This document shows, one piece after another, positions 275-58,916 of a stretch of 64,000 nucleotides of DNA. Position numbers and translations under genes: made by a program. Where the stretch lies: the IMG/VR virus record IMGVR_UViG_3300016478_000246, positions 1 through 64,000 of that record; one strand, written 5' to 3'. The DNA is from a virus. The notes beneath the pieces were generated by a model. It searched no databases. It had not been told where the DNA came from and saw nothing but the letters and a program-made list of their open reading frames with translations. Positions within the stretch are counted from its first letter, which is position 1. The number at the start of each line of letters is the position of its first letter.

Positions 275-655
275 ATTATGGATAACTTTCAACCATCCAG
301 GATTACTCCGTAAAATAACACAGTCTATAGGGAACCGATTTTACAATATTAAAGCACGCCTATGCTACTTCTTTAATAAGGTTTACATCCTGTTAAATCA
401 GGATTGGCATCATTGTTTAAACTCGTATCAATGTTTAACGAGTACATTTGTACAAGGATTTCTCCGATTAATTATAGGTATTTTTATCCACTAGGCAAGA
501 ACGAATCTACTTAAGCCTATGAACTAATTAGTCCTACATCGTTTACCGACTCACATTTTTTAAAGTGAATACTGTTAATTCAGTGCATTTCAGGGGGTCC
601 TATTTTCCCTCCTACGATTAATTAATCACCCTGTCAATTCAGGGGTTGTATTTTT
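275..655 (-). ncRNA. Unidentified multi-hairpin structured RNA
   Basis: No ORF. At least 8 stems; mismatches on + become G-U pairs on - (e.g. UGGAUGGU/GUUAUCCA, CGGUU/GACUG, AGCAU/GUGCU). Confidence 0.45.
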
Positions 656-740
656 ATGTAAATTAAGTAGGACAAGCACAGAAAGGAGGTTTTTAAAATA
701 TGCTTATTAATTTACAAAGGAATCAATGTTTAACCTTAAA

Positions 741-890
741 TGCAAATTAAGTGTGTTGTTACACCAAAATGGGATGCATTTATCCAGCGCGCATAACCTT
801 CTATTCTGTTACCAAATAGGGTATTTCGCTTGCTGGTGGTCCATACTCCTTAGATGATGGCTACTTCCAAGCCTACATTCTTAATATGCA
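741..890 (-). ncRNA. 23S rRNA uL11-binding domain (H42 top-H43-H44) mimic with ~80-nt inserted arm
   Basis: Minus strand reads AAGAAUGUAGGCUUGGAAGUAGCCAUCAUCUAAGGAG...GUGUAACAACACACUU, colinear with 23S nt ~1053-1106, and is closed by UGCAUAUUAAG/CUUAAUUUGCA. Confidence 0.8.
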
Positions 891-892
891 AA

Positions 893-1101
893 AACAAAAC
901 TACCTTGGGAAATGTTACGACACCCTACGCATTATTTGAAGTTGGTGTTCAGATTGCAAGCTCTTAAACTCTTGCTACGATAACATCAATCAACATTTTC
1001 TCTCACTTCCCCAGTTGATTTATAGTACATTCTCTGACGCCAGACTTTCTGGATAGTTTCTTCGGGACATACTATTTGAAAACTTGATTAGTAGTTTTGT
1101 T
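893..1101 (-). ncRNA. Unidentified multi-stem RNA with predicted pseudoknot
   Basis: Perfect 11-bp terminal stem AACAAAACUAC/GUAGUUUUGUU, three internal arms, and a loop UGGGGAA complementary to UUCCCA near the 3' end. Confidence 0.55.
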
Positions 1102-1499
1102 TATTCGTTGAGTAACCTGTTTAGATGATTAATTCTTGCTTGCCTATCACCAGGGCAGAACCAATAACCTCCATAATATTTTTCTTCACCATATCTTAAT
1201 GGAGAAAAGTTGTCATTACAAGTGATATTCATTAAAGATTTAGCCTCTTTTTTAGATATATCTTTTTCATCACAAAGCACTTGAATTGTGCGGCATAATC
1301 CCACAAAACATGCATCATAATTATCTACAATCTCAATAAGCCTTTTAATAAGCTCTTTTTCTCTTTTGCTGATAGGACGAATCTTTTTAGGCTTATTAAA
1401 CCACGCAGGCATCTTTTCAAGGAGCCAGTAAGTAGCCAGTAAGACTACATATATCCCTATTAATATGGGGATAAATTCAAGTTGTTCTTGTGTTATCAT
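1101..1499 (-). CDS. Hypothetical protein, paralog 3 of a YWF..GD.Q.RI family, with N-terminal TM helix
   Basis: 132-aa ORF; shares GLC and YWFxxGDxQxRI motifs with its two neighbours; hydrophobic residues ~9-27. Confidence 0.75.
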   Translation of the reverse strand: MITQEQLEFIPILIGIYVVLLATYWLLEKMPAWFNKPKKIRPISKREKELIKRLIEIVDNYDACFVGLCRTIQVLCDEKDISKKEAKSLMNITCNDNFSPLRYGEEKYYGGYWFCPGDRQARINHLNRLLNE

Positions 1500-43706: not shown

Positions 43707-46700
43707 ATGGCTAAAACAATTGAAGATAAAGCATTAGGACTTGAATTTGTGAGTGATGATCCTTTAAAATCATATAACCCAAGCATTGCCGTTAAACAAA
43801 CCGGGGACTTTAATGTCCCTGGTATCGGCACTGTGTCACGCGAATCCTTGGCTCCGGTAAACTTATGGCAAGCAGACCCTACTCGTCAAGAAGCAGTTGG
43901 TCAATATATGCAGGGCATTGACATGGCTGATAAATACTTATCACGCGAGAATATCACTCCTGAAGATTTGGATGATATTAATGAAGTGATGTATCGCAAT
44001 CAGTCGACAGTAGAGGCTGTTGCTAATGGTTTTGTTTCACGGGCAATTTCAATACTCCCAAAAACGCTTAACACTATTGGCTCAATCGGTGGACTTGGCT
44101 ATGGAATGATGGATTACATGTTTGATGCAATTAATCCAAATGAAGAAGCTGACTTAGGTCGTTCATTAAACCAAGGTCTTGATAATTTCTGGGTACGCGG
44201 TATGAACCATTGGGATGAAAGTCTTAAAGAGCTAATGCCGGTGTTTGGAAGCAAATATGGATATTACTCAGACTCATTGATGGATAATCTTTCATCAGCT
44301 AAGTTTTGGGCCGAAGATGGGTTTGATGGCTTGGCATTTACAGCATCAGCATTTGTCCCCGGGGCTGGATGGGCCAAAGCATTAGATGCAATGTCTAAGA
44401 CGGCTAAGGGCGCAAACTTTTTTGCCCAGACAGCTAAGTTTGCTAAATATGGCAAGGCTGCCCAAGCTATGAATGCTATGTCTAAAGAGCAATTAGTGGC
44501 GTCGGGGGTTGATAAGCTTACAAATATATTAACTACTGCCACCAACGTAATTAACGAGTCAGCTCTTGAAGCATATGAAGCTACAAAAAATTTTGATAAG
44601 GATACCTTCATAGCCAAGAGGTTGCAAGAAAGCCCTGAGGCTAAACGGATAATGCAGCTTGAAGAGCAGGTATCAATGATGCGGGACGACTCTGAAATAG
44701 CTGGCTTAATTAACCCTGAAGAAGGGCCCAAGGCTATGAAGATGCGTGAACTGCAAGAGGCCAAGGACAACTTGCTTAACCAGCTTGATGAAGAGTATCT
44801 TGAGGCTAAGGGACAGTTAGGTCTTAATGTATTTAGGGCGAACAATATGGTCCTGATTCTGCCGGATTATCTACAGTCTAAATTATTTACCAAGGCTTTT
44901 GGCAATGCATCAAAGTCTATCCGCGCAGAAGCAAGACAGGCGGCTAATAAAGCTATCCGCACCACCGCTCTTAAAGAAGGATTTAAACAGGCTGGCTATG
45001 CAATTGGTCGAGAAGGATTTTGGGAGGAAAATGCTCAGACCGCAGCATCAACATACTATCAAGAAAAAGCGTTTGGGACTCCACGGATTGATAACGATGT
45101 TGTTGGTATTCTTGATAACATGGTTAAGAACGCTACATTTCAAGACAAAGAAGGCGCTAAGTCAATCATACTTGGTGCAGCCGCAGGTGGCTTGTCGTCA
45201 TTTGGGTTAGGAGCGTACGCTCAGAAGCAAAAGAATAAAGAGTTTGATAAAGAAGAAAAACTCTGGCAAAATATATTAAACATCGCCGGGGCATCAGTTA
45301 AGACCGCTGTGGACGATTGGCGGGCACTGGCTGATGAAAATGGCAATATCTCAACTGAAAACTTTATCAAAGCATTTACGTTTGCCAAGGATAAAAAGGA
45401 CGCCATTGAATCGCAGCAGGTAGCATTACTTCTTGGCAACGAGATAGCTCACGAGCTTGGCCGTAATGACGAAATAACTAAGTTGTTTTGGGGCGAAGTA
45501 AGTTCGGTTAATGGCAGTAAATATATAAGCCAGGAAGAAGCTATTGAAGTAATCAAGGGCAAACTCACTGCTCTTAAAGAGGTAGATGGTGCTGACAACG
45601 AAACAATCGCTATGGCTGATGGGTTCATAGCCAAGGTTGATAAATTGTCAGAGAACTTAAAGAATGCCGAAGAAACTATTAATAGAGTGATTGATTCTGA
45701 GGATAAAAATGCAGCTGATAACAAAGATGTTTTAACCAGGTCACTGTTCTTTGCGATGAACAAGCTCGCTGAAGTTAATGACCTTATAGAAAACGGTGAG
45801 ACTATTTCAGACAGACAAAAAGAAGCTCTTGGTGCTCTCGCAGAAGAATATCAAGAGGCTATTGACGCTCTATCAGATAAGAACAAGGTTAAAGGCTTGG
45901 TGCAAAAATTTACTAATGATGCCAACTATCATTTAGCACTGCAAAATCAAATTGCAGAAGAGACTGCCAAGCCTAAAGAAACTCAAGACCCAACAAAGTT
46001 AAAAGTATTAAAATATCAGCTTGAAGAGTTTTATGAAATCTATGGCTTTCAAACCAATGCTGATAAGAAATCAAGACGTGCATGGGGTACTAATGGATTA
46101 CGTTTAGGATTTGCCCCAACAGACGTTGTTAACCGTGGCACACTTGGGTTACGTGATAAATACTTCTATGACTTGGGCCGTGATGCATTAGCGCGCAATG
46201 AAGTTGAAAGACTTATGGCTGATGTTAATGGAGATGTTACAGCAGCGGAGATTGTATCATTTGTTGAAAGCGAAAACTTTCATTACCTGACAAAAGAAGA
46301 GGCTGATAGGCTGTCAGCAATTGCAGATTCAAAGGCTCAGGCTTTAAAAGAGGCCAAAGATAATGCTATAGTTATAAGAGATGATTTCTCTATTGACACA
46401 ACGGCTTTTGATGAACTAAGCAAATCGCCAGACAATATCTTTACAGAGGCAACCTCATCAAAGCCAAGTGAGTTAATTGGTAATGCTTATGCCAAAAAAT
46501 CTCAAGAAAGAACTGAGTTTATTGGCTCAGAAGACAAAGAAATGTCTTTTGCAAATAATATACGTCGTAGACTTGCAACTAAGTTTAAACGCGACACAGA
46601 TACTATGATTGAGAAGATTAATGAAGATATTGATAGTTATTCAAACATTGAAGCTATTAACGAACGCATTAATGCCACCCAAGATAGAATTGATGTATTT

Positions 46701-49700
46701 GAGCAGAGCGAGGACCATAAAGATTTGTTTAAGGATGATTCGGCGAAATTTATTGAATCTCTTAAAGAACAAAAGGTTGTACTTGAACAGTTAAAAGGTG
46801 CTGCGCTCAACAACAAGGGTAACAAGGAAGCACTTGACACTAAACTCAAAAACATTGAGAGCCAATCAATGATGAGCGCATTTGGACTTATGCTCGATGG
46901 CAATAAGGTTAAGATTTCTAACATGGCCTTGATTGAAAAAATTAAAGCTATTGTTGGTGTTGACGTTTTAAATAAGCTAATCTCAAACCTTGAGACTGAT
47001 GGGATGGTGGGTGATTATGTCTTTATAGACAAGTTCATGCACGACCTGACAGCGGACCAACGTACGCAGATTTCTGAGGCTATCAAGGCTGAGCATGCCG
47101 TCGTTAAAGACAGATTATCTAAGAGCGTATTTAGGCTCAAAGTCGCTGATGGAAGACTTGATAAGTATGCAGCTATTCTTGAAAACCCTCAAAAGATTTT
47201 GACGGTATTCCTTGGTTCTAAGAAGATGTTTAAAAAGGGCGCTGATGGATATATTTTCCTAACGTCCACGACTAATAAAAAGAACATTATTGATAGATAT
47301 ATGATTCATGGCAATTTAGATTTGTTGCTTGAGGAAATAACTATTGACAATGGCAAAACACTGATGGCTGAAAATGTTAAATTAACAGCCCAGGATGTTA
47401 CTGATGTGGTAGAGTTTTTGAAGGATATGATTCAGATGCGTAACAACGCACGAATCCTTAGCGACCTGGCATCAACGTCTGATATGAGTAAGTTTGCAAA
47501 GGCTGAAAAAGACTTGTTGACTTCAACAACTATTGGACCATCACAACAACAGCGTTCAACTATTAAGCGCATATATAAGTGGCTTGGTGATTTCAGCGAC
47601 ACTAAGAATAGCGGCTTCTCAGACATGTTAATTGCTAATGGTATAGCTGGTACCGGTAAGACAATGATAGTGGCTAAAATGCTGTTTAAATTGCTTGCAA
47701 AGACTGCTGGTATCAATGTCAATAAGAATATTATGGTATTAGGTGCAACCAAAGAGGTGGCAGACAATTTATCAAACTCTATCGGCAAGACTATTGGCGC
47801 GACAAGCAAAGCTGTTGAAGATTTAAAGGAAGAAGATCTTAATGACAATATATCAATCATAGCAGTCGATGAAATCGGTGTTCTTAATATTGTAAGACTG
47901 GGAGAACTGGCTGTTAAGTTACGCAACGTTAATGCTAAGCGAATCGAAAAAGGCTTAAATCCAATTAAATTGATTGGATTTGGGGACCCTAACCAGGTGA
48001 CTGAGGTTGAAGGAGATAACGCCTCGCGTATTACAGAGCTTGAGGGGAAGGTTAATGAAGTTCAAACGACAGACTTAGTTGATATTAAGTTTGCCCCAAC
48101 ATTAATGGTTCAGTACCGAAGCGATATTGATGCAATCAACGAAGCAGCGGATGAGTTTAGTGGCCGCAAAAAGCCAGTTAAAAACATCAGCGCGGTATCA
48201 AATGTAAAGAGTGATGAGTACGAAGCTAAAGATGCTAAAGGCGTTCATGCTTACGATAATATCAACTCATTTATTCAGCGCATCGAAGGATTCTTAAAAG
48301 CTAACGAAAAGAAAACTATCACGCTGGCATATAATCTGCCTGAAAACAAGGAAGAGATCTACAAGCGTCTTTCAGACGAGGCTCGCAAAAGAGTTGTATT
48401 TAAAAACTTCTTTGAGTTGCAGGGTTTAACGATTGACAACTTGTTTATCAATGTTAAAGTTAAAGGCACTGACCAGAAAAGGTTCAACTCATCAATGTAT
48501 ATGCTTTTATCTCGCGCAACTAATTATGTGGCTATTAACGATAATCATAGAAATTTTGAGCAGAAGGTAGACCCAATATCTATGGAGAAGGTTGCCGATA
48601 GAAATGTTGAGCAAAAATCCAAGAGCAAAGATGCTTATGATAAAGTTGTTGAAGAAGAACTCGCTGTGATGGGTGATGTTGTTATAGCAAAACAACCAAC
48701 GCTTAAAAAGACACCAAAAGTCAGCACTCCGCCAACACAAAACGATAAGCCTGAGCTAAATCCCGTAAATCATCAGCCTGAATCTCCAGTAGAAGAAGAA
48801 GTTGATGATACCGATGACCGCGAAATAACCCCAGAGGGAAAAGCTGAGCTTGCAGCAAAAGAAGCTGAGCGTGTTAAAGACAAGCCTGATGATGCTAAGA
48901 TTGGTGATATAATCGAAGATACGTGGGAGCCAGGTCAGGTTAAGGTAGAAAATCCAAGAGGAGCTAACTTTAAAACTGCCGATTTAAAAGACGGAGATAA
49001 ACTTTTTGTTCTTAAAATTACCCCAGGCCAAATCAAGGGCGGTCCTAAAGAGGTTGCTATACTTGTAAAAGAAATTGAAGTTGCTGGAGAAAAGAAATAC
49101 ATTGAAGTTGCATGGCTCAATAAAAAAGAGGTCAAAGACCTTGGTCTTGAAGACCACCCATTGTTTAAGTCAAAGAAGGGTGTGGACCGAAGCAATGATA
49201 ATGATATGTACTCTGATGTTGAGCACGCAATGTTCAAAGATGAGGATGGCAATTTAGTTCAAGTTAATGTTGACGCTGCAAGAGGATTTAAAGTTAAGTA
49301 CGACCCAAATATCAAAGCTACTGGTAATATAATTAGCGATACTGCTGGATATATTGCAGATAAATTTAAGGTTTTGACAGGCAAGCTTAATGTTGAGTAC
49401 TTTTTGCCGACACGTTCCACTATGGATAAAACAAATCCTAAGAACGCTTATAGCAATTTACCACTTGATTTGGGGGTGCCGTATTTGATCTTCACCTTGC
49501 CAAACGGTAAAACAATTCATGTCCGCTTAAATCCAAAGCCTTTTACTAAAGATAATTCATGGACAATCAATGGAGTATCTGCTTTTGAAAGACTAAGATT
49601 ATTCACTGAAGGGTCAGCAGCTATTATTAAGTGGCTGGAAGAGAATTCAATTGCAACATCAATAGGCTCTTTTTCGTACAGAGATTTGTTGCACGCAATA

Positions 49701-52700
49701 GGCTCTGACAAAGAACTGATGATAGCCCCTGATGGTGATAAGCGATTTAAACTCATAGAGGGATTATCTGCGACCACATTTGAAGGAGCTTTTAATAATA
49801 GCATTGACGCACAAAAAATGTCAGCATTCTTTGGTGGGGATATTGATTTGTTCAATAGATTTATCACTGAAAACAGAGCCGCCCTTGAAAATGTATTAAA
49901 TCAATACTTCTCTGTTAAGGAGGAGACTGAGATTATCAATATCACAAATTCTATCAAAGAGGGAGACCCGTATAAATTAGGTGGTGCATTTGAAGTGTTT
50001 GCAGATGTTGTTAATAACAAATTTGCAGAAATGATTTCAGGACCACTTGCTGCTGAGCTGGCCAAAAATAATCCATCAAGAGAAGCTGTACTTGAAATAT
50101 TTGGAATAGAGCTCGAATTAACCAAAGATGGCGTCCCATCTGAAAGTGAGTCAAATAAAGAAAAGCTTGCCGCTGCTGAAAAATTTTCAAAAGAGTTTGA
50201 AAAGCTTCATAGGGTCCACATAACAAAAGAAAAGCTTGCCGAAATAGCTTTTAAATCATGGACTGCGTTTGAAGAAGGCCAAATGTTTCCAAAAGGCTCA
50301 TCAAAGAAAATATCAAGCAATGGAAGCGAACAGAATGCCTTTAAGATAATCCGTGACTTATACAAGCAAATGTTGGTGTTTAGTCCAATAGAGCATGAAG
50401 ATGAGAACGGTATTATATACAAATGGCATGCGGAATTTAACAACAAAAAAATTGATGGCAAACATGTTATTACCAGGGCGTACCCAGGAGAAGAAGATAG
50501 GCCGTTCATAGTTCAGGGGCGTACAACTCAAAATTCTCCAATACAAGCTATCCTCAACAACGTAGCGCGCTCCAACAAAACTATCAATGGTAAAAACCTG
50601 CGCAAGTACGCTCCTAAGAAAAGAGTGCTTGTAACACACTATGAGAGTGATGCTGTAACGTTGCTATGGGAGAAACGCATTGATAAGACAACCGTTGATC
50701 ATCCAGTGGTAGAAAATATGCACCTTGATGCAAGGGCTCATGGAGTTAATGAAGAGGCTCTCGTGAAGTACATATCTATCAGAGATGCTGCTATTGCTGA
50801 ATACAATAAAGCCAAGGGTTACGCATCAAACAAAGACCATACTGATGAAGACAGGGTTGCTATCCAGTCAGTATTACAAGAGTCTATCGAAGAAGAGTTG
50901 ATTGATAGTCTCGTTAAAAATGAGGCTGACACCAACTGGGCAATGGATGATCTTGATGAAATACTTTCAGGGAATACTCGTCGTCAGATTGTAAGCAACG
51001 AAATCCGTGATGCTAATAAAAACGGTCTTGCTGCTATGCGAGAATATCAGGAAAACTTCTCATCAGACTTTGCTGGCATCCAGGAAAGTACTTTAATTAT
51101 CAAAAGAGATGTGCCTTCCGCTAAGCCAGAGCAAGCTCCTGCTGAAGCCGCCGCAGCTCCACAAGAACAAATTGATGTAGTTCCTGAAGAGGAAACTGAG
51201 GCTGGTGTCGGATTACTTGATATTGGTGGAAGCCTTAGCGATATTGGTATGCCCAAAGATGATTTTGATGACGCGTTCTTAGTCAAAGAGGGTACATCTC
51301 AAGAGCAACTTGGTAGGGTTATTAATGTAAACACAGCATTGGCTTATTTAAGGCGCTTATTTCCTAACGCAGACATTAACACATTTAGATTCTTAGAGTC
51401 TGTTAGAGGGCAAGGAAAAGATGTTTTTGGGCGTTTTGTTGACGGTATAATTGAAGTTGAAAAAATTGCTAAATCAGATAACCTCTATGAGAACATAGTT
51501 CGTCATGAAGCATTCCATAAAGTGTGGCGTGAGTTCATGACCGCATCGGATAGAAAGATAGTTGTTGAGGCTTACCTTAAAACACTTCCTAAAGATGAGC
51601 AAGCTAAATATAGCAATATGAGTTATGCTTATTTGGCTATGGAACTTGAAGAGCACATAGCAAGGGCTTATCAGGTCTATAATAAAAACCAGGATATTAA
51701 ACCAGGACCAATGCGCAAAGCCATGTTATTCTTAAAGAGAATATTTAGAGACTTGATGCACTTCCTAACTGGCAATCCGGCAGAGTTAAACCATTATTTC
51801 AACTTGATTGACTATGGATTCTTTAATACTCAGTTTGATCAGTTTAGAGGCTCCAAAGGATACTATGGTATTATTAAAGACTTTCAGAGTGTTGATAACT
51901 ATATCTACGCTAAAGAGTTTGTTGCAGAGACTTACAAGTATTTCTTGTTTAATGGACGCGGGCCTTCAAAAATCCCAATGTCTCAGCAAGAAATGAACGC
52001 AGCAGTTATTTTAGTGGCTCAAGATAGACTCAATAAGCGCAAAGCGTTTCTTAACGCCAATGCTCAAAAGTATATGGACAAGGAGCTTACTAAAGAGCAG
52101 GTTGAAAAATATGAACAAGCTGAGAAGGAAGCTAAGGCTTATGAGATGTTATTACTATCTGACAAGGTTTTAAAAGACACTGAGAAGTTAAATGATTACA
52201 AAAAGATACTTGATGACGAAGCTATTGATAAAGAGTCTAAGGAATACAAGGAGGCTAAAGAGGCGTATGACAAAACTATTACACGAATCAATAAGGCTAA
52301 AAACCAGGACTTCCCAAGATTCTCAAAAATACTTGATGAGATTTTACCAGGCCGTGCAGACAATAAACTGGCCGCTGGTGTTTTAACGGTTGGGGATAAA
52401 GTTGAAGACACTGAAATCGACTACGAGGATGAAGAAGAGTTTAAAGACCCATCTGCCGACTCTGGCGTAACAGCATTATCTCCGTTTGAAGCCAACTCTG
52501 ACAAGCACGATAGGGAGACTAAAATGTTTGCAAGCGTTAAACACGCTTTATCAACTGCAAGAAATCTCCAATATAATACATTTATTGATGGTGGTTTGGC
52601 GTTTAGGATGGTGTTTAAGTGGTTTGAAGGATTGAACAATGATTCAAACGAAATCCTATTGCAAGTGCGCAACAGAATGATTAATGACGTTTTCAAAGGC

Positions 52701-55700
52701 GACCATAAAATTACTGATACTGAACTGATTAAAGATTATGGCAATAGGGAGGATGTGTCAATGTATTTTGCCCTTAAAGAAATATATGACATTGCATCGT
52801 CAAACTTTTATAGCAAAAGGTATTATGATGCAAATCCTGAACTGAAAGGCAGTAGGCTTGAGGATAATATCGCAGTAATCCTTGACAGCAAGGGTGACGT
52901 CGCTCATCTTGCAGTTCATAAAAAGGGTGAGGATATTAGCAAGGCTTTGTTGCAGGACTTAAAGAACAATGCTGATGTTATATTAATATCTGCAAAAGAC
53001 CTTAAGCTTGATAAAAACAACAAACATTTATTGCTCGTTCAAGAAATGATTGCTAAGGCAGCAAAAGAAGGGCTTACCCTTAAAGACTATGAAATCTCTG
53101 CGGTAATGCAAAAGGAGATATTTAGAAATACCTGGGTTGAAATACAAAACACTTTCTCCTCAATGAAAGAGTCGAACCTAATAGTTGTTAAACGAAAAGA
53201 TTCTTTTAAAGGTATTGAATACTCAGTTTCATCCGGGGCGAGCACTGAAAAGCAACAGTTGGTTATTAATAATGTCAAAGACGAGATTGCTAAGAAGTTT
53301 AAAACTAAGTCTGAGTTTATGGCATGGATTAAAACTCAGGCAACAACTTTTGATTTAAAGTCCGCAGACATTGATGCGATGACCGATGAGCAGCTTAAAG
53401 AAACTATCAAAGCATTCTTTAAGAGTATCGGCATAACAAGCAAGCCTGACTTTAAGAACACTACAAGAGTTGTTTGGGACTCAGTTGTGAGAGAATTAAA
53501 TTGGTTTAGCTCTGCGAACATGGTTAAATGGGCGGAGTCACAAGAGGCTAAAGCCGTCGACAAGGCTGCTGATGAAAACGACATGATTGCTGGTCGCAAG
53601 GATGAAGAAGATGCTGATTATATTGATGAGGTATTTGAAGAAGAGGGAACTATTCTTAACAAACTCGCGTCTGTAATATCAGCAGAAAATACTAAAAGAC
53701 GCGCAGGCTCATTCAGAGGCGCTGACGACAGAAAGCGATATACTATTGTTATGTCGGAGTTTGCGACTAAGGTTATAACCCAACTCAAGTCGCATGAGTT
53801 TGGAGTGAGAGGCGGCAACATTAAGCTACCAGATTACTTAAAGACTGACTTCATGCGTGCTAACCCAATTCTTGCGGGATTGCAAAAGATTCACAAATTC
53901 CACTTGCATGGTGGTAATAAATACTCAAACAATTATAGTGAAGATAAAGTAATTGACTACAATAAAGAAGGATTCCAGCAGTACATGGAAAGGTCATTTA
54001 TGGCCTACTTCATGCGTGGATTTAAAAAGGGTGGAAGTTCTGTTGAATACTTCCAGCCAGTGTATGTAAAATCTAACAGAAAAGATACTACTCCCGCAAA
54101 GATGAATGTCTTGACATCTGAAAAGATTATAAACACAATTTATCCACAGATATTTAATCAGCAATTATTACAAGACCCAGACTTGGGAGACAAATGGAAT
54201 GTTGATGATGAAGGAACTCCGGTAGATGTATTTAAGTTTGTTAACATGGGGCCGTTAAAACAGGCTGTCATAGATGCAACTGGCAATAAATTTACCAAAG
54301 AAAAGTTTATTGAAATGATGCGTCAGGGTAAGACCTGGAATGATTTAGACTCCATATTTGGTGAAGGCACTATAAACAAGGTCAAAGAAAATCTCAACAA
54401 ATACTTTGATGGTATTGCAAAACAGCTTGCTCAGCGCATGGTTACGGAAGGGGTTAAATTGCATGTTGATATGGCACAGATGGTTGAAAACTTGCTTGTG
54501 TTTGATGGCATGGACCCAAAGGTTGCTAAAGAAACTGTTGAAAAAGAGTTTAAAGACTTTGGTACTAATTTATTTCAGAGTGCAAGTGCTAATGCTAAAA
54601 AAGAAGGCAAAGGTATATACTCTAACAAAGCATCAATGCTTGAGGCCGCAGTAAGATTATTTGCTATGAACAACGAAGTTAATTCATATGCGCTTAATCA
54701 AATATTCACTGGTAATCAAAATGTGTTTGGCAAAGGAGTTTCGATACTTAAGCGTATGTCTGTCATCTTTGGTCCTGGTATGGGTATAGCTGTTGGACCT
54801 ATGGGTGCAAAAGTTAAATCAAACGTGCTTGTGCTTAAAGACCCAACCTATGGTAGCGAATATAGGAAGTTAATTTATGGGCAAGTAGGATTGACTGAGA
54901 GCGAAATAAGTGAGCTTCTTTCAAAGAACTCCAGAGGTGCAATAAATTACGCTGATGGACAGGGTTATATAACTCCTAAAAGAGCACAAGAGCTTAGACG
55001 GGCTGTTGGAGCATCCTACAATCTATCAACAGTTGGTAAGCCTTTGTGGTATGATATTGATGAAAATGGCGTTGCCCATGCAATTAAATACTCATGGATT
55101 GAGCTTACTGACGAGATTGTAAATAGTGACAGCACGGGAGGGTTAAAGGCCCTTAGGGAGCTTATGGAGAAGCATGATGTTGATGAAGCAGTATTTGCAT
55201 CAGCCGTTAAGGTTGGATTGCCAAAAGGCGTTGTTGACTGGGATGCCGTTATGAACAAGACTGCTGATGACGACATGGTTTCAAAAGCGATGCTTCAAAT
55301 GAAAAATGCTAACTATCGCTTGCAGCTTAACCCTGAGCATGGATTTGGTGATAATAACACCACCGTTCCATCACAGTTAATGTTTATCCTCAATATTTTA
55401 AACAACAATGTTGAAGAAGCTGATAAAGCTTATGATGCATTAATGAATTTATATAAGATTGGATTTAAGGAGCTTTCAGAGAAAATCAAGAAACATGGTA
55501 AGCTTAGTGAAGAGAAGGTTTTAGACACCCTTAAGACTAAGTTTAAATCATCTCCATCAGCAGAGATTGAATCTAATCTTTTGGATGAAGGTGTGACCAC
55601 CGATTGGCCAGCAATCACTAATAAAGCATTTAGCCAGATGACATCGTTATTCTCAAAGAACACTATTAACCAAAGGCTTAAAGGTGGTAAGACGGTATTG

Positions 55701-58700
55701 ATGGCGTCAAATGGCGTTACTGTCAATGGCAGAGAATTGTCTTATAGCGTTGAAGTTGATGCTGATGGAAGAAAGACGATAATGTCGGAAGCCGTTTTAA
55801 CAAGAGAAGCTGCCAAACAAATATTAACTCCTGAAGAATATAAAGAGTTGAATGATGCTATTGCAAAAGGCAGGACTCCTAATCTTATATTTACTAATGG
55901 TAATTTATTTGGCTATCGTATCCCATCTTCTGAATTGCACAGTGGTGTAGCTCTTAAGATAGTTGGACTTATTGATGGACCAGGAGTTAACATTGTTGTT
56001 CCTAAATACATTGTAGAGGTTCATGGTAGTGACTTTGACGTTGACTCGTTATTTGTTATTGGACGTGAAGTGGTTTATAATAAAGAAGGAGTTCTTATCA
56101 ATTACGATTGGGATAAAAAGAATAATCGCTATGAATTAAGAATTGCAACTGAGGATGAAATCGAAGCATTGCCTATTAAAGACAAGAAGCGCTACTATAA
56201 AAACATTGTAACAGAAATGCTTTTAAAAGCTATCTCAAAGCGTGAAAACTTTGTTCGTACCAACTCGGCCATCTCCCTTGCAGCCCTTGAAGGACTAAGG
56301 GTTAAGATTGCCAGAGAGACCGGTGGCAGCGTTGTAAAGAGTGAAAAGAACTTATCAAATGTTTTAGAGGCATTTGAAGTTCACCAATCATCACACAACG
56401 GTAGTGATGGTGTAGGTATCTTTGCAAGCTCATTTAAAGCCATAGCTTACGCTATGAGGGCTGGTCTCAACAAAGCAATCCCAAGAGTGACCATCAATGA
56501 TAATGATGATAGACAGAAGATTGTGTTTAATGGCAAATTAATTGATTTGTTGTCAAACAAGATAACAACTTTTGAAATGATTGATGCGCTTGTAAATGCT
56601 GCGGTTGATAACGTTAAGGAGCAAATACTTCCGTATTTTAATCTTAATGCAAACACCATGTCATCATTTGTTGGAATGCTGGCATTAGATGCAGGTGAAA
56701 CTAATGGCATCAGCAATTCAAATGAATTGGCTGGGCGTATGGCAAGACAGTTGTTCTTTAAGAATATCGCTGACTATAAATCTGGTAATAGCTTCATGGC
56801 GACTGCCGGAGTTATCAATGACATTGCAGAAGCGCTTAAAAAACTTGGCAAAGATATTCCTGAAAGTTACGAAGACTTGACCACCGAAGAGTTGACAAAA
56901 GCTTTAGCGTTTAACGAAAAGGCTGGTATTAACTCTTTAAATGAGCTGTATGAAAAACTTAAAAATACAACCGATGCAGAACTTATTGATTTTGCAGCAC
57001 AACAAGTTAAATTCTTTGAGTTTTACAAGAGCTTTAATAAAGTGGGTGAGGATTTGTCTAAGTTGTCTGGATTGATGTCGATACTAAGAGAGTTTCCATC
57101 TGATGCAATTGCCCTTGAAACTAAAGTAAAAGATTTTGGCTCAGTGTTTGAAGAAGTTGATGAAAAGATTGCTAAGCCTATAGATGGGGATTTAGAGAGA
57201 ACTATTGATTATTCAAAAGTAAAATCTAAAGATTCATTTAGCATAGATCTGCAAGAGCTGTTTATTACCGCACCGCACTTAGCTGAGGCGCACAAAGTAT
57301 TAACAGAGCTGTATTTAGCGACAGAGTTTTATTTCTTTAAACATAGCAAGGAGGTTAAAGCATTTGTTGAACAAGTATCTGGGATTACTGGTAAAATTCT
57401 TAACGAGACCAGCAACGAAGAAATTGCCGAGGGTGACAAAGAAGAAGGTGAAAGTAAATCATCCATGAAGCAAGACGTTAAGACTAAAGTCTCTATGCGT
57501 GATGATGTTATTAAGTTCTTAATTAATGCCATTAATTGGGACCCAGCATTTCCTGGGTACAACAATTTACCACCGGCAGAGATTGAGGTTAATAAAGAGA
57601 AGCGTACAGTTGCTGGTGTTGATGCGTTTAAAAAGCACTTTGGCGAAAAGATATATGCTCTGAAAGAGCACTTAAAAACTGTTTCATCAGAGCAGGGTGT
57701 TAACAAGAAAATCCTTATCAACAAGTTCATTAATGAACTATCACCACGCGTCGGTTGGGGTGGTATCACTGAGTGGTCTATGCCGCGCTCGGTTGATTTT
57801 AAATCTGAGGATTTAATACGTCTTAAGGCTGATTTTGAAAAGCTTAACAAGTATGATATTAAATACAACGAAGAAACTAAAAAATGGGAGGTTTCTGAAA
57901 CTGATGATTTAAGTTACAAAGAGTGGCAAAAAGATTTTGTTAGATATGGAACTATTGTTAATGGTATGTCTTTTGGGGCATCAAGCTTTTCACTTGCTTT
58001 ACCATCTGACTTGTACATGGGGCTTTCTGATGGGCTGAGGGCTATGGTTGAAGTTATTAAAAACAATCCAAAAATGCTTTATAATAACAAACATAGATTC
58101 TTTATTCAATACGCTTTTAACAACATATTAAAAGTTAAGTCTATTGACACCAAGGCTGAGAAAGAAGGAGCGTCATACTCCGGGTTTGTTGAGATTCAGG
58201 ACAAGGAACATTTCTTTAATTTAAAATTCCCTCTTGAAGTTACCAAGGATAAGGATAACAATGAAGTTGTTCATGACAACATGCCATCGTTAATTCGTAG
58301 GACTGGTAATAAAATCTCCGACATATTCATGCTTGTTGGTACTAAAGATAAGCATGCATATTATATAAGGCTTGGAGCACAACGCCCAACAATGACTTAC
58401 AATACAACTGAAGAAGAGTTTGTGGCAGCAGCCAGCACTGAATTTAAAGATAACAAAGACACTATTATGAGTCTTAATGAGTTTAAAGGAATGTCTGAAA
58501 TTGATGCTGAGGCTGTATGGTCCACCCTAAACGAACAAGTTAGGGCTGAAAGATTATTCTCGGTTAAAGTTGATACAACCATGCCGCATATTATAGTACC
58601 AAACACTCTTGAAGATAAATTTAAGGTGCAACCAGATTTAGTTGAAATGCTTGCTAAAAAATATGGTTCTGAACCATTTATGGCAATTGTTAGAAATCAG

Positions 58701-58916
58701 TCTGACATCACAATATCAAATCCAAGAGTTGTTATGCTTAAAAAGCGGTCAAGTGACTCGTTGGCGGTGGTTGGAACAAAAGAAGATGTAGTTGACAATA
58801 CATCATGGGAAGCTGTTAAAGATAATAATGTTATCAAGAGCAGCGGCTGGACTAAAGAAGACTGGGATGCAAAGTCACAGGAAGAAAAGGATCAATTTAT
58901 TAAATGTTACGTATAA
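43707..58916 (+). CDS. Giant virion RNA polymerase polyprotein (5069 aa): SF1-helicase-like, zincin and two-barrel RNAP domains
   Basis: GIAGTGKT (47640), VDEIG, GDPNQ, QGLT; HEAFH (51504); ADGQG, YRIP, GSDFDVD (56031-56045). Confidence 0.88.
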   Translation: MAKTIEDKALGLEFVSDDPLKSYNPSIAVKQTGDFNVPGIGTVSRESLAPVNLWQADPTRQEAVGQYMQGIDMADKYLSRENITPEDLDDINEVMYRNQSTVEAVANGFVSRAISILPKTLNTIGSIGGLGYGMMDYMFDAINPNEEADLGRSLNQGLDNFWVRGMNHWDESLKELMPVFGSKYGYYSDSLMDNLSSAKFWAEDGFDGLAFTASAFVPGAGWAKALDAMSKTAKGANFFAQTAKFAKYGKAAQAMNAMSKEQLVASGVDKLTNILTTATNVINESALEAYEATKNFDKDTFIAKRLQESPEAKRIMQLEEQVSMMRDDSEIAGLINPEEGPKAMKMRELQEAKDNLLNQLDEEYLEAKGQLGLNVFRANNMVLILPDYLQSKLFTKAFGNASKSIRAEARQAANKAIRTTALKEGFKQAGYAIGREGFWEENAQTAASTYYQEKAFGTPRIDNDVVGILDNMVKNATFQDKEGAKSIILGAAAGGLSSFGLGAYAQKQKNKEFDKEEKLWQNILNIAGASVKTAVDDWRALADENGNISTENFIKAFTFAKDKKDAIESQQVALLLGNEIAHELGRNDEITKLFWGEVSSVNGSKYISQEEAIEVIKGKLTALKEVDGADNETIAMADGFIAKVDKLSENLKNAEETINRVIDSEDKNAADNKDVLTRSLFFAMNKLAEVNDLIENGETISDRQKEALGALAEEYQEAIDALSDKNKVKGLVQKFTNDANYHLALQNQIAEETAKPKETQDPTKLKVLKYQLEEFYEIYGFQTNADKKSRRAWGTNGLRLGFAPTDVVNRGTLGLRDKYFYDLGRDALARNEVERLMADVNGDVTAAEIVSFVESENFHYLTKEEADRLSAIADSKAQALKEAKDNAIVIRDDFSIDTTAFDELSKSPDNIFTEATSSKPSELIGNAYAKKSQERTEFIGSEDKEMSFANNIRRRLATKFKRDTDTMIEKINEDIDSYSNIEAINERINATQDRIDVFEQSEDHKDLFKDDSAKFIESLKEQKVVLEQLKGAALNNKGNKEALDTKLKNIESQSMMSAFGLMLDGNKVKISNMALIEKIKAIVGVDVLNKLISNLETDGMVGDYVFIDKFMHDLTADQRTQISEAIKAEHAVVKDRLSKSVFRLKVADGRLDKYAAILENPQKILTVFLGSKKMFKKGADGYIFLTSTTNKKNIIDRYMIHGNLDLLLEEITIDNGKTLMAENVKLTAQDVTDVVEFLKDMIQMRNNARILSDLASTSDMSKFAKAEKDLLTSTTIGPSQQQRSTIKRIYKWLGDFSDTKNSGFSDMLIANGIAGTGKTMIVAKMLFKLLAKTAGINVNKNIMVLGATKEVADNLSNSIGKTIGATSKAVEDLKEEDLNDNISIIAVDEIGVLNIVRLGELAVKLRNVNAKRIEKGLNPIKLIGFGDPNQVTEVEGDNASRITELEGKVNEVQTTDLVDIKFAPTLMVQYRSDIDAINEAADEFSGRKKPVKNISAVSNVKSDEYEAKDAKGVHAYDNINSFIQRIEGFLKANEKKTITLAYNLPENKEEIYKRLSDEARKRVVFKNFFELQGLTIDNLFINVKVKGTDQKRFNSSMYMLLSRATNYVAINDNHRNFEQKVDPISMEKVADRNVEQKSKSKDAYDKVVEEELAVMGDVVIAKQPTLKKTPKVSTPPTQNDKPELNPVNHQPESPVEEEVDDTDDREITPEGKAELAAKEAERVKDKPDDAKIGDIIEDTWEPGQVKVENPRGANFKTADLKDGDKLFVLKITPGQIKGGPKEVAILVKEIEVAGEKKYIEVAWLNKKEVKDLGLEDHPLFKSKKGVDRSNDNDMYSDVEHAMFKDEDGNLVQVNVDAARGFKVKYDPNIKATGNIISDTAGYIADKFKVLTGKLNVEYFLPTRSTMDKTNPKNAYSNLPLDLGVPYLIFTLPNGKTIHVRLNPKPFTKDNSWTINGVSAFERLRLFTEGSAAIIKWLEENSIATSIGSFSYRDLLHAIGSDKELMIAPDGDKRFKLIEGLSATTFEGAFNNSIDAQKMSAFFGGDIDLFNRFITENRAALENVLNQYFSVKEETEIINITNSIKEGDPYKLGGAFEVFADVVNNKFAEMISGPLAAELAKNNPSREAVLEIFGIELELTKDGVPSESESNKEKLAAAEKFSKEFEKLHRVHITKEKLAEIAFKSWTAFEEGQMFPKGSSKKISSNGSEQNAFKIIRDLYKQMLVFSPIEHEDENGIIYKWHAEFNNKKIDGKHVITRAYPGEEDRPFIVQGRTTQNSPIQAILNNVARSNKTINGKNLRKYAPKKRVLVTHYESDAVTLLWEKRIDKTTVDHPVVENMHLDARAHGVNEEALVKYISIRDAAIAEYNKAKGYASNKDHTDEDRVAIQSVLQESIEEELIDSLVKNEADTNWAMDDLDEILSGNTRRQIVSNEIRDANKNGLAAMREYQENFSSDFAGIQESTLIIKRDVPSAKPEQAPAEAAAAPQEQIDVVPEEETEAGVGLLDIGGSLSDIGMPKDDFDDAFLVKEGTSQEQLGRVINVNTALAYLRRLFPNADINTFRFLESVRGQGKDVFGRFVDGIIEVEKIAKSDNLYENIVRHEAFHKVWREFMTASDRKIVVEAYLKTLPKDEQAKYSNMSYAYLAMELEEHIARAYQVYNKNQDIKPGPMRKAMLFLKRIFRDLMHFLTGNPAELNHYFNLIDYGFFNTQFDQFRGSKGYYGIIKDFQSVDNYIYAKEFVAETYKYFLFNGRGPSKIPMSQQEMNAAVILVAQDRLNKRKAFLNANAQKYMDKELTKEQVEKYEQAEKEAKAYEMLLLSDKVLKDTEKLNDYKKILDDEAIDKESKEYKEAKEAYDKTITRINKAKNQDFPRFSKILDEILPGRADNKLAAGVLTVGDKVEDTEIDYEDEEEFKDPSADSGVTALSPFEANSDKHDRETKMFASVKHALSTARNLQYNTFIDGGLAFRMVFKWFEGLNNDSNEILLQVRNRMINDVFKGDHKITDTELIKDYGNREDVSMYFALKEIYDIASSNFYSKRYYDANPELKGSRLEDNIAVILDSKGDVAHLAVHKKGEDISKALLQDLKNNADVILISAKDLKLDKNNKHLLLVQEMIAKAAKEGLTLKDYEISAVMQKEIFRNTWVEIQNTFSSMKESNLIVVKRKDSFKGIEYSVSSGASTEKQQLVINNVKDEIAKKFKTKSEFMAWIKTQATTFDLKSADIDAMTDEQLKETIKAFFKSIGITSKPDFKNTTRVVWDSVVRELNWFSSANMVKWAESQEAKAVDKAADENDMIAGRKDEEDADYIDEVFEEEGTILNKLASVISAENTKRRAGSFRGADDRKRYTIVMSEFATKVITQLKSHEFGVRGGNIKLPDYLKTDFMRANPILAGLQKIHKFHLHGGNKYSNNYSEDKVIDYNKEGFQQYMERSFMAYFMRGFKKGGSSVEYFQPVYVKSNRKDTTPAKMNVLTSEKIINTIYPQIFNQQLLQDPDLGDKWNVDDEGTPVDVFKFVNMGPLKQAVIDATGNKFTKEKFIEMMRQGKTWNDLDSIFGEGTINKVKENLNKYFDGIAKQLAQRMVTEGVKLHVDMAQMVENLLVFDGMDPKVAKETVEKEFKDFGTNLFQSASANAKKEGKGIYSNKASMLEAAVRLFAMNNEVNSYALNQIFTGNQNVFGKGVSILKRMSVIFGPGMGIAVGPMGAKVKSNVLVLKDPTYGSEYRKLIYGQVGLTESEISELLSKNSRGAINYADGQGYITPKRAQELRRAVGASYNLSTVGKPLWYDIDENGVAHAIKYSWIELTDEIVNSDSTGGLKALRELMEKHDVDEAVFASAVKVGLPKGVVDWDAVMNKTADDDMVSKAMLQMKNANYRLQLNPEHGFGDNNTTVPSQLMFILNILNNNVEEADKAYDALMNLYKIGFKELSEKIKKHGKLSEEKVLDTLKTKFKSSPSAEIESNLLDEGVTTDWPAITNKAFSQMTSLFSKNTINQRLKGGKTVLMASNGVTVNGRELSYSVEVDADGRKTIMSEAVLTREAAKQILTPEEYKELNDAIAKGRTPNLIFTNGNLFGYRIPSSELHSGVALKIVGLIDGPGVNIVVPKYIVEVHGSDFDVDSLFVIGREVVYNKEGVLINYDWDKKNNRYELRIATEDEIEALPIKDKKRYYKNIVTEMLLKAISKRENFVRTNSAISLAALEGLRVKIARETGGSVVKSEKNLSNVLEAFEVHQSSHNGSDGVGIFASSFKAIAYAMRAGLNKAIPRVTINDNDDRQKIVFNGKLIDLLSNKITTFEMIDALVNAAVDNVKEQILPYFNLNANTMSSFVGMLALDAGETNGISNSNELAGRMARQLFFKNIADYKSGNSFMATAGVINDIAEALKKLGKDIPESYEDLTTEELTKALAFNEKAGINSLNELYEKLKNTTDAELIDFAAQQVKFFEFYKSFNKVGEDLSKLSGLMSILREFPSDAIALETKVKDFGSVFEEVDEKIAKPIDGDLERTIDYSKVKSKDSFSIDLQELFITAPHLAEAHKVLTELYLATEFYFFKHSKEVKAFVEQVSGITGKILNETSNEEIAEGDKEEGESKSSMKQDVKTKVSMRDDVIKFLINAINWDPAFPGYNNLPPAEIEVNKEKRTVAGVDAFKKHFGEKIYALKEHLKTVSSEQGVNKKILINKFINELSPRVGWGGITEWSMPRSVDFKSEDLIRLKADFEKLNKYDIKYNEETKKWEVSETDDLSYKEWQKDFVRYGTIVNGMSFGASSFSLALPSDLYMGLSDGLRAMVEVIKNNPKMLYNNKHRFFIQYAFNNILKVKSIDTKAEKEGASYSGFVEIQDKEHFFNLKFPLEVTKDKDNNEVVHDNMPSLIRRTGNKISDIFMLVGTKDKHAYYIRLGAQRPTMTYNTTEEEFVAAASTEFKDNKDTIMSLNEFKGMSEIDAEAVWSTLNEQVRAERLFSVKVDTTMPHIIVPNTLEDKFKVQPDLVEMLAKKYGSEPFMAIVRNQSDITISNPRVVMLKKRSSDSLAVVGTKEDVVDNTSWEAVKDNNVIKSSGWTKEDWDAKSQEEKDQFIKCYV

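Follow-up and report, generated by a model that had tools for sequence, protein, structure and literature searches.

The window analysed here is a stretch of 64,000 nucleotides from the IMG/VR virus record IMGVR_UViG_3300016478_000246, which in full measures 98,352 bp and is rated 97% complete. Near the left end of the record a stretch poor in open reading frames (approximately 250-1100 of the window) houses, on the minus strand, a non-coding element of 150 bases with the layout of a closed H42-H43-H44 domain of the 23S rRNA type, i.e. of the GTPase-associated centre (GAC). Its parts, given by window position and by E. coli 23S nucleotide, are:

741-890, minus strand: the whole GAC-mimic RNA element, as matched by covariance model R1; no Rfam family is found at the site.
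880-890, minus strand: 5' strand of H42, the closing stem, pairing with 741-751; base 880 corresponds to G1055.
741-751, minus strand: 3' strand of H42, complement of 880-890; base 751 corresponds to C1104.
854-878, minus strand: H43 (nt 1057-1081), placed by alignment to E. coli 23S, with loop 1066-1072 including G1067 (868) and U1072 (863).
845-853, minus strand: junction strand (nt 1082-1090) with C1082 (853), G1086 (849), G1087, A1088 (847), G1089 and U1090; 1082 and 1086 covary, and G1087 and A1088 are invariant in 78 members.
769-844, minus strand: inserted arm, an irregular hairpin with a CCAGC/GCUGG stem and an apical hairpin, common only to the element of one other phage locus (L112).
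765-768, minus strand: conserved UUUG linker leading from the arm to G1091; YUUUG stands 5' of G1091 in nearly all members.
753-764, minus strand: H44, with G1091-C1100 at 764-755 and loop GUAACA, followed by A1101 and C1102; the triple has the U.U-A form, U1092-A1099 with U1072.
895-902, minus strand: TAGTTTTG, tentatively read from the sequence as a possible Bacteroidota-type -7 promoter box (TAnnTTTG), 5 nt upstream of the start of H42.

Boxes of this last type are common in the window (94 matches observed, 78 expected), and the one upstream of the element is not conserved in L112. The closing stem (890-880/751-741) consists of 11 pairs with one U.U mismatch.

Three tandem paralogous genes (1101-2050; 132, 100 and 100 aa) are found on the same strand immediately upstream of the element, and the next minus-strand coding sequence is approximately 500 nt away. 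The window carries tRNAs for Met, Thr and Ser, and its copy of the element stands alone, the nearest tRNAs (Met and Thr) being 3.7 kb off on the opposite strand. The three small proteins have the common pattern G-L-C ... Y-W-F-x-P-G-D-K/R-Q-x-R-I ... L-L; neither Pfam, PHROGs nor the ESM Atlas gave a match for them and a related-locus search with the 132-aa neighbour found no relative, while homologues of the 100-aa neighbour exist. A family of approximately 110 aa with a collinear G-M-C ... F-W-W ... R-L pattern is encoded approximately 350 nt upstream of elements in phages of about 185 kb (L004, L008, L049 and L090), and one member lies downstream of the L125 element; its relation to the tandem proteins is only suggestive (hhalign probability 24%, E = 8e-4).

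A portal protein 57-58% identical to those of the crAss-like cr108_1, Kolpuevirus and Bacteroides phage DAC15, together with crAss-type portal, head and terminase proteins recognised in the source genome with PHROGs, places the source phage, as judged from these proteins, in the Crassvirales, and its host is probably a member of the Bacteroidota. No uL11 gene was found in this Crassvirales genome.

The resemblance to the ribosome was originally noticed in a sequence-only reading of the window, which had aligned it to 23S nt 1051-1108. The 1051-1108 sequence used there is correct, and the coordinates and identity counts all hold against the E. coli rrlH sequence: bases 881-846 of the minus strand are identical to nt 1054-1089 at 29 of 36 positions, and bases 764-750 to nt 1091-1105 at 11 of 15. 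Bases 863, 763 and 756 are U, U and A at positions 1072, 1092 and 1099, bases 853 and 849 are C and G at 1082 and 1086, U1060, A1088 and A1095 are retained, and positions 1061 and 1067 are A and G, respectively. When the whole 23S sequence was compared with the 64-kb window by blastn, the element stretch (nt 1054-1088) was the sole match (E = 0.001, with everything else at E >= 0.5), and it follows that the element is without flanking rRNA and is not part of an rRNA gene. In addition, the Rfam model LSU_rRNA_bacteria gave no match to the element or elsewhere in window 400-1300 even at E <= 10, so that the locus does not hold a complete 23S rRNA. Taken alone the sequence match is modestly significant, a binomial estimate multiplied by the search space giving approximately 0.03, and the evidential weight for the window element comes from its family rather than from this match. 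Covariance model R1, comprising 18 members, scores the window element at 108.1 bits (E = 7e-22; match span 739-893) and finds it as a single copy in the 98-kb genome.

More than 100 self-closed copies of the GAC domain were found in other phage contigs, and the family counts are lower bounds, since divergent members such as L112 escape R1 when it is run with its default filters. In IMG/VR, 62 contigs match an IUPAC pattern made for the H43 core; of these, 61 align to 23S only at approximately nt 1055-1088 and one is true rRNA. Between 42 and 360 nt downstream of the core a second conserved block is found, YUUUG and then G[C/U]GUARNA[G/A]CACAC, and 3' of this block a strand complementary to the bases just 5' of the core; the 3' half and closing stem are present in every complete copy examined, and a scan with the 3' block only yielded further members with different 5' cores. 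Complete elements are recognised by R1 in four cultured phages, namely Pseudomonas pf16, Cronobacter GAP32, Aeromonas 4_4572 and Xanthomonas XacN1, where they occupy unannotated gaps, in pf16 between tRNA-Asn and tRNA-Pro. Among genome-bin contigs, 13 of the 80 matches to a 3'-half pattern are real copies according to R1, from bins of at least six phyla, and most of the others are chance matches. A covariance search for homologues in other phages, of the kind that had been suggested, returned a family with covariation (see below). The element is a stand-alone RNA outside any rRNA, and its family occurs widely among phages. Nothing useful came from blastn searches of E. coli genomes with the element or of the phage collection with window 500-1100, because the conserved core is too short for databases of those sizes.

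Some further observations concern individual contigs. In XacN1 (L070:831-1735) a gene with the annotation 2'-5' RNA ligase stands immediately upstream of the element. In some phages there are two GAC-mimic elements (L104:3842-4341, in tandem; L111:1114-2366; L086:2696-5058), and the paired elements within one phage differ in their arms and in the covariant states at 1072/1092/1099 and 1082/1086. A contig of the wastewater run X1 aligns to window 489-707 and 891-951 with approximately 174 unaligned letters in between, compared to 183 in the window, which points to a relative whose element, at the same position, has diverged; the other contigs from this run, whose RNA status is a guess, are short and come from relatives and from the conserved core. 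A match in Paenibacillus phage Pd_22F was rejected as an element, since it is nearly a whole 23S rRNA: approximately 2.6 kb in an unannotated gap of MZ092003 (L069:397-3036) align to 23S nt 1-2605, and this stretch is host DNA, a chimera or contamination.

As for genomic context, 49 of the 95 elements considered have a tRNA gene no more than 500 nt away, all but one of these 49 on the same strand and 30 within 50 nt, and tmRNA genes and group I introns are found near the element in some loci. The copies have in common a short covarying H42 closing stem, a near-invariant H43/H44, an arm between nt 1090 and 1091 and the UUUG linker, and the window element displays all five features of the family: a self-closed covarying H42, the 1090/1091 arm, the UUUG linker, A1101 and a phage as carrier. 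The arm site, the linker, A1101 and the short closing stem are common to the family and absent from rRNA, and as far as can be read from the sequences these shared traits argue for a single origin followed by spread among phages rather than for repeated capture from hosts. Family cores often differ at paired positions from E. coli-type rRNA, the reference used for this comparison, as with G1058-C1080 in pf16, and this points in the same direction.

In 78 aligned members 90.9% of the cells pair and 16 of 20 pairs change on both sides, in an alignment that was fitted to the model and is therefore biased toward structure; an independent MAFFT alignment (A1) gives the same picture. None of 500 shuffles reached the observed values for pairing and covariation, and sliding the partners against each other drops pairing to 31-51%. 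All ten modelled pairs of H42 change on both sides across the family, with all pair types in use and no conserved sequence. The lower and upper stems of H43 and the H44 hairpin are present at their rRNA positions, with 98.5-100% of the cells pairing, and compensatory changes are seen at 1058/1080 (UA in 49 members, GC in 12, AU in 11 and CG in three) and at 1063-1064/1074-1075; in a few members, such as L081 and L112, the upper H43 stem is rebuilt altogether, e.g. as GCAU/AUGC. Furthermore, the tertiary pair 1082/1086 covaries (UA 50, CG 16, AU 5), and the triple 1072/1092/1099 is either C/C/G (34) or U/U/A (30) with one exception. In the first set of members, where the 3' block was outside the search pattern and the count hence is pattern-independent, positions 1072/1092 are C/C in 31 cases and U/U in 13, without exception. 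Conn, Gutell and Draper are said to have described both the 1082-1086 and the 1072.(1092-1099) covariation in rRNA in 1998, and the U.U-A triple and C-G tertiary pair of the window, which had been read as natural covariations, are indeed states that covary across the phage family. Since the secondary pairs and two tertiary contacts covary, it is strongly supported that this RNA is selected for the three-dimensional GAC fold, as had been surmised from the window by itself.

Other positions do not vary at all. No exception occurs among the 78 members at G1059, U1060, G1062, U1066, G1087 and A1088, nor at G1093, U1094, A1095 and A1098 among the 66 members aligned at H44, the other 12 of the 78 being gapped there. 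U1060, A1088 and A1095 are the bases to whose retention attention had been drawn in the window, and as these three do not vary they give no covariation signal. Position 1067 is A in 47 members, G in 29 and U in two, and position 1101 is A in nearly all members, as opposed to U in rRNA. Position 1061 varies freely (A 35, U 27, G 12, C 4), and the earlier proposal that A1061 stabilises the fold is unsafe, since in rRNA, too, position 1061 lacks conservation and the U1061A change is destabilising in monovalent ions (PMC6239185).

The arm is the most variable part of the element. We find 96 unique arms of 38-356 nt that fall into approximately 59 unrelated classes, every one of them inserted between nt 1090 and 1091, and no k-mers are shared among them beyond the expectation from shuffles. 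In the window the sequence-only reading had correctly seen an irregular hairpin, which it took to span 81 nt (765-845) and to replace nt 1090; G1089 (846) and U1090 (845) are however both present, as in most members, and the insert is better described as an arm (844-769) followed by the UUUG linker (768-765), between 1090 and 1091. Within a class the arm is conserved. That of the window is common only to L112, a different phage whose flanks have no detectable protein similarity to the window, and there the CCAGC/GCUGG stem has become CCACU/AGUGG by two compensated pairs, with one more compensated pair in the apical hairpin. Scans of viral and metagenome contigs with motifs of the window arm returned only L112 (the same contig again) and chance matches. 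A hairpin, CCUGAAUUGACAGG, common to window 630-643 and the L026 arm was treated as chance (17-nt match, E = 0.25). Just 5' of the UUUG linker a module, CACCCC-GUAAYU-GGUAAGG, recurs in the arms of otherwise unrelated phages (L066:1490-1691, which is pf16; L068:1490-1786, which is Aeromonas 4_4572; L015, L050, L053, L104 and L086), with GGAGAC in place of GUAAYU in pf16, and the hairpin of this module, a CC/GG stem topped by a GUAAYU loop, is similar to H44.

Among known RNAs the closest is the bacterial 23S GAC itself (H43, H44 and the upper part of H42; E. coli nt 1051-1108, known as the 58-nt fragment that binds uL11 and thiostrepton), with which the element shares the secondary structure, the tertiary contacts 1082-1086 and 1072.(1092-1099), the bases U1060 and A1088 of a further contact, and a near-identical core in which G1093, U1094, A1095 and A1098 are kept by the family. 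It differs, however, in being phage-encoded and outside rRNA, in being closed by a short stem of free sequence without the lower H42 and kink-turn, in having an arm and UUUG linker between 1090 and 1091, in A1101 instead of U and, in the window, in G1067. Ribosomal protein mRNA leaders (the L10 leader RF00557 and those of L1, S8, S15 and L20) are likewise non-ribosomal RNAs that mimic an r-protein's rRNA site, but they are cellular, consist of a small local motif and act in cis on r-protein operons, whereas the phage element copies a whole tertiary domain, is self-closed and occurs in phage tRNA arrays or alone; in the window its neighbours are small phage ORFs, and there is no Rfam match to L10_leader. 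In its proposed imitation of the natural nucleic-acid ligand of a cellular machine so as to compete for it, the element resembles protein-sequestering or mimic RNAs such as 6S RNA, CsrB/RsmZ and tRNA-like structures, all stable RNAs, but what it imitates is a functional centre of the ribosome, and it is viral and has an inserted arm lacking any counterpart. Finally, the fragmented organellar rRNAs of apicomplexan and green-algal mitochondria also encode the GAC as a small separate gene, but those pieces become part of the ribosome and pair with further fragments of rRNA, whereas H42 of the phage element is self-closed and therefore leaves no strand free to join it.

No description of such an RNA was known to the sequence-only reading, and we have come upon none: Rfam 15 has no family over the element, either at gathering score in the window and 18 related loci or at E <= 10 in window 400-1300, a full-text literature search gave no description of a phage GAC-mimic RNA, and an rRNA-like motif is mentioned in neither of the two large surveys that report candidate structured RNAs from phages and microbiomes. 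As far as Rfam 15 and the literature searched go, this large family of phage GAC-mimic RNAs is previously undescribed. The absence of ribosomal RNA is part of what defines a virus, and a widespread phage gene for a copy of one of the ribosome's functional centres, tertiary base triples included, would constitute a new kind of host mimicry.

With regard to function, we believe on balance that the element acts as an off-ribosome mimic of the GAC, one to which host uL11 is bound and which presents a factor- or toxin-binding surface to a competing ligand. The RNA would be transcribed alone or together with neighbouring tRNAs and would then fold with Mg2+, and host uL11, the C-terminal domain of which reads exactly such a tertiary fold, would bind to it. 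We infer this binding because uL11 recognises the folded GAC, a fold it indeed requires for binding (PMC6239185), and because the phage genome is without a uL11 gene of its own. The resulting particle would present the H43/H44 loop surface, with an invariant A1095 and A or G at 1067, and would compete with ribosomes for a ligand, candidates for which are uL11 in its free form, one of the translational GTPases and a host effector directed against the GAC, while the variable arm would add a lineage-specific second function or partner. Munishkin and Wool reportedly observed in 1997 that EF-G binds to GAC oligonucleotides in isolation. Effectors directed against this surface do exist, since the bacterial toxin Tre23 ADP-ribosylates nt 1095-1098 of H44 and impairs the GTPase activity of EF-G (PMC8661411). 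The sequence-only reading had proposed, as possible functions, a sponge for uL11 or stalk proteins, a blunted RelA response, a decoy for translation GTPases or for nucleases that target rRNA, and a tether by which the arm would be held to the translation machinery.

Several properties of the element are less favourable to the mimic reading. A1101 and the arm at the base of H44 may change the geometry, which counts against it. To our knowledge A1067 is universal in bacterial rRNA, and as the window has G at this position, like 29 of the 78 members, the mimicked surface is imperfect and would not suit a ligand that requires A1067. Little of the uL11 in cells is free, and a sponge would therefore need high expression. 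The site of uL10 comprises a nearly complete H42 (nt 1029-1125) with its lower stem and kink-turn (PMC1635324), and as only approximately 11 pairs of unconserved sequence close the phage domain, with lower H42 and kink-turn absent, the full uL10 site is missing. uL10 also contacts the upper stem and junction loops (PMC1635324), and these are present in the element, so weak binding of uL10 may be possible.

It may furthermore be the arm rather than the mimic that carries the function, because each class of arms is conserved and because two copies in the same phage have different arms. On a further reading, phages of diverse lineages and hosts would carry a modular RNA platform, in which the faithful GAC copy would recruit host uL11 and perhaps translational GTPases and the interchangeable arm would direct this mini-stalk particle to lineage-specific partners. 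We put this forward tentatively, as a possibility with the odds against it; if true, it would represent a new class of viral ribonucleoprotein manipulating or protecting host translation, for instance by decoying effectors aimed at the GAC.

The main rival of the mimic explanation takes the arm to be the working part and the GAC fold to be a compact, nuclease-resistant handle, perhaps coated with uL11, in the manner of tRNA scaffolds; the arm might then be, for instance, a module for base pairing or for binding a protein, different in each phage. The large number of unrelated arms at one fixed site agrees well with such a role, and so do the conservation and covariation of arms within a class, as between the window and L112, the recurrence of CACCCCGUAAYUGGUAAGG in several phages and the presence of two copies with different arms in one phage. 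A scaffold is nonetheless rather unlikely, since the arms have no common motif beyond chance, since very short arms (38-47 nt) exist and since it leaves invariant exposed bases such as A1095 unexplained. A1095 is not needed by the GAC fold itself.

An anti-defence decoy, i.e. an RNA that absorbs an abortive-infection or competitor toxin modifying or cutting the GAC and thereby spares ribosomes for the phage, appears improbable to us. It would fit that the H44 target of Tre23 (nt 1095-1098) is invariant in the family except for 1096 and 1097 and that elements sit in tRNA arrays, phage tRNAs being known to counter tRNA-targeting defences. However, such a decoy would have to outcompete tens of thousands of ribosomes, it leaves the variable arm without explanation, and no antiphage system directed against the GAC is known to us. 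Interference with the stringent response, in which titration of uL11 would lower activation of RelA or shift RF1/RF2 termination during infection, has in our judgement a still poorer chance. RelA activity depends on uL11 and the fold that uL11 recognises is conserved, but ribosome-bound uL11 would need to be stripped off, and with regard to termination the window has no suppressor tRNA and no recoding among its Met, Thr and Ser tRNAs and its long ORFs, which are open in table 11.

It is very improbable that the element is a cis-acting leader, e.g. a uL11-responsive switch, or part of a short coding gene (plus-strand ORFs 726-857 and 854-967). R-protein leaders are known to mimic rRNA sites and the element follows three small genes on its own strand, but the distance to the next minus-strand coding sequence and the location of half the family between tRNA genes are at odds with a leader, and the plus-strand ORFs are short and antisense to conserved paired regions. 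That the element is debris captured from rRNA, a chimera of the assembly or contamination from the host, as the high rRNA identity over 35 nt and the nearly whole 23S in the Pd_22F record might suggest, is refuted by the family, for only nt 1054-1105 are present inside a non-rRNA closing stem, the arm and derived features are common to more than 100 phage copies and maintained by covariation, and the cores often differ at paired positions from E. coli-type rRNA, with which they were compared.

The GAC mimic would open a direct route to the ways in which phages deal with uL11, with the stalk and the translation GTPases, with the stringent response or with toxins acting at the GAC, and since cultured carriers exist in pf16, GAP32, 4_4572 and XacN1 the question is testable now. 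The family is moreover a natural experiment on the GAC fold, in which approximately 100 independent sequences outside the ribosome show which bases are needed by the fold or its ligands (A1095 is, A1067 is not). Two further observations were made in the window. At 1-250 of the minus strand, running off the end of the record, a gene has by eye the look of an HNH-type endonuclease (CxxC pairs and an L-D-F-H-H-V-N-P motif), with an apparent frame break near 105-115. At 43707-58916 of the plus strand an ORF of 5069 aa is followed by one of 1536 aa, and very large proteins do occur in crAss-like phages.
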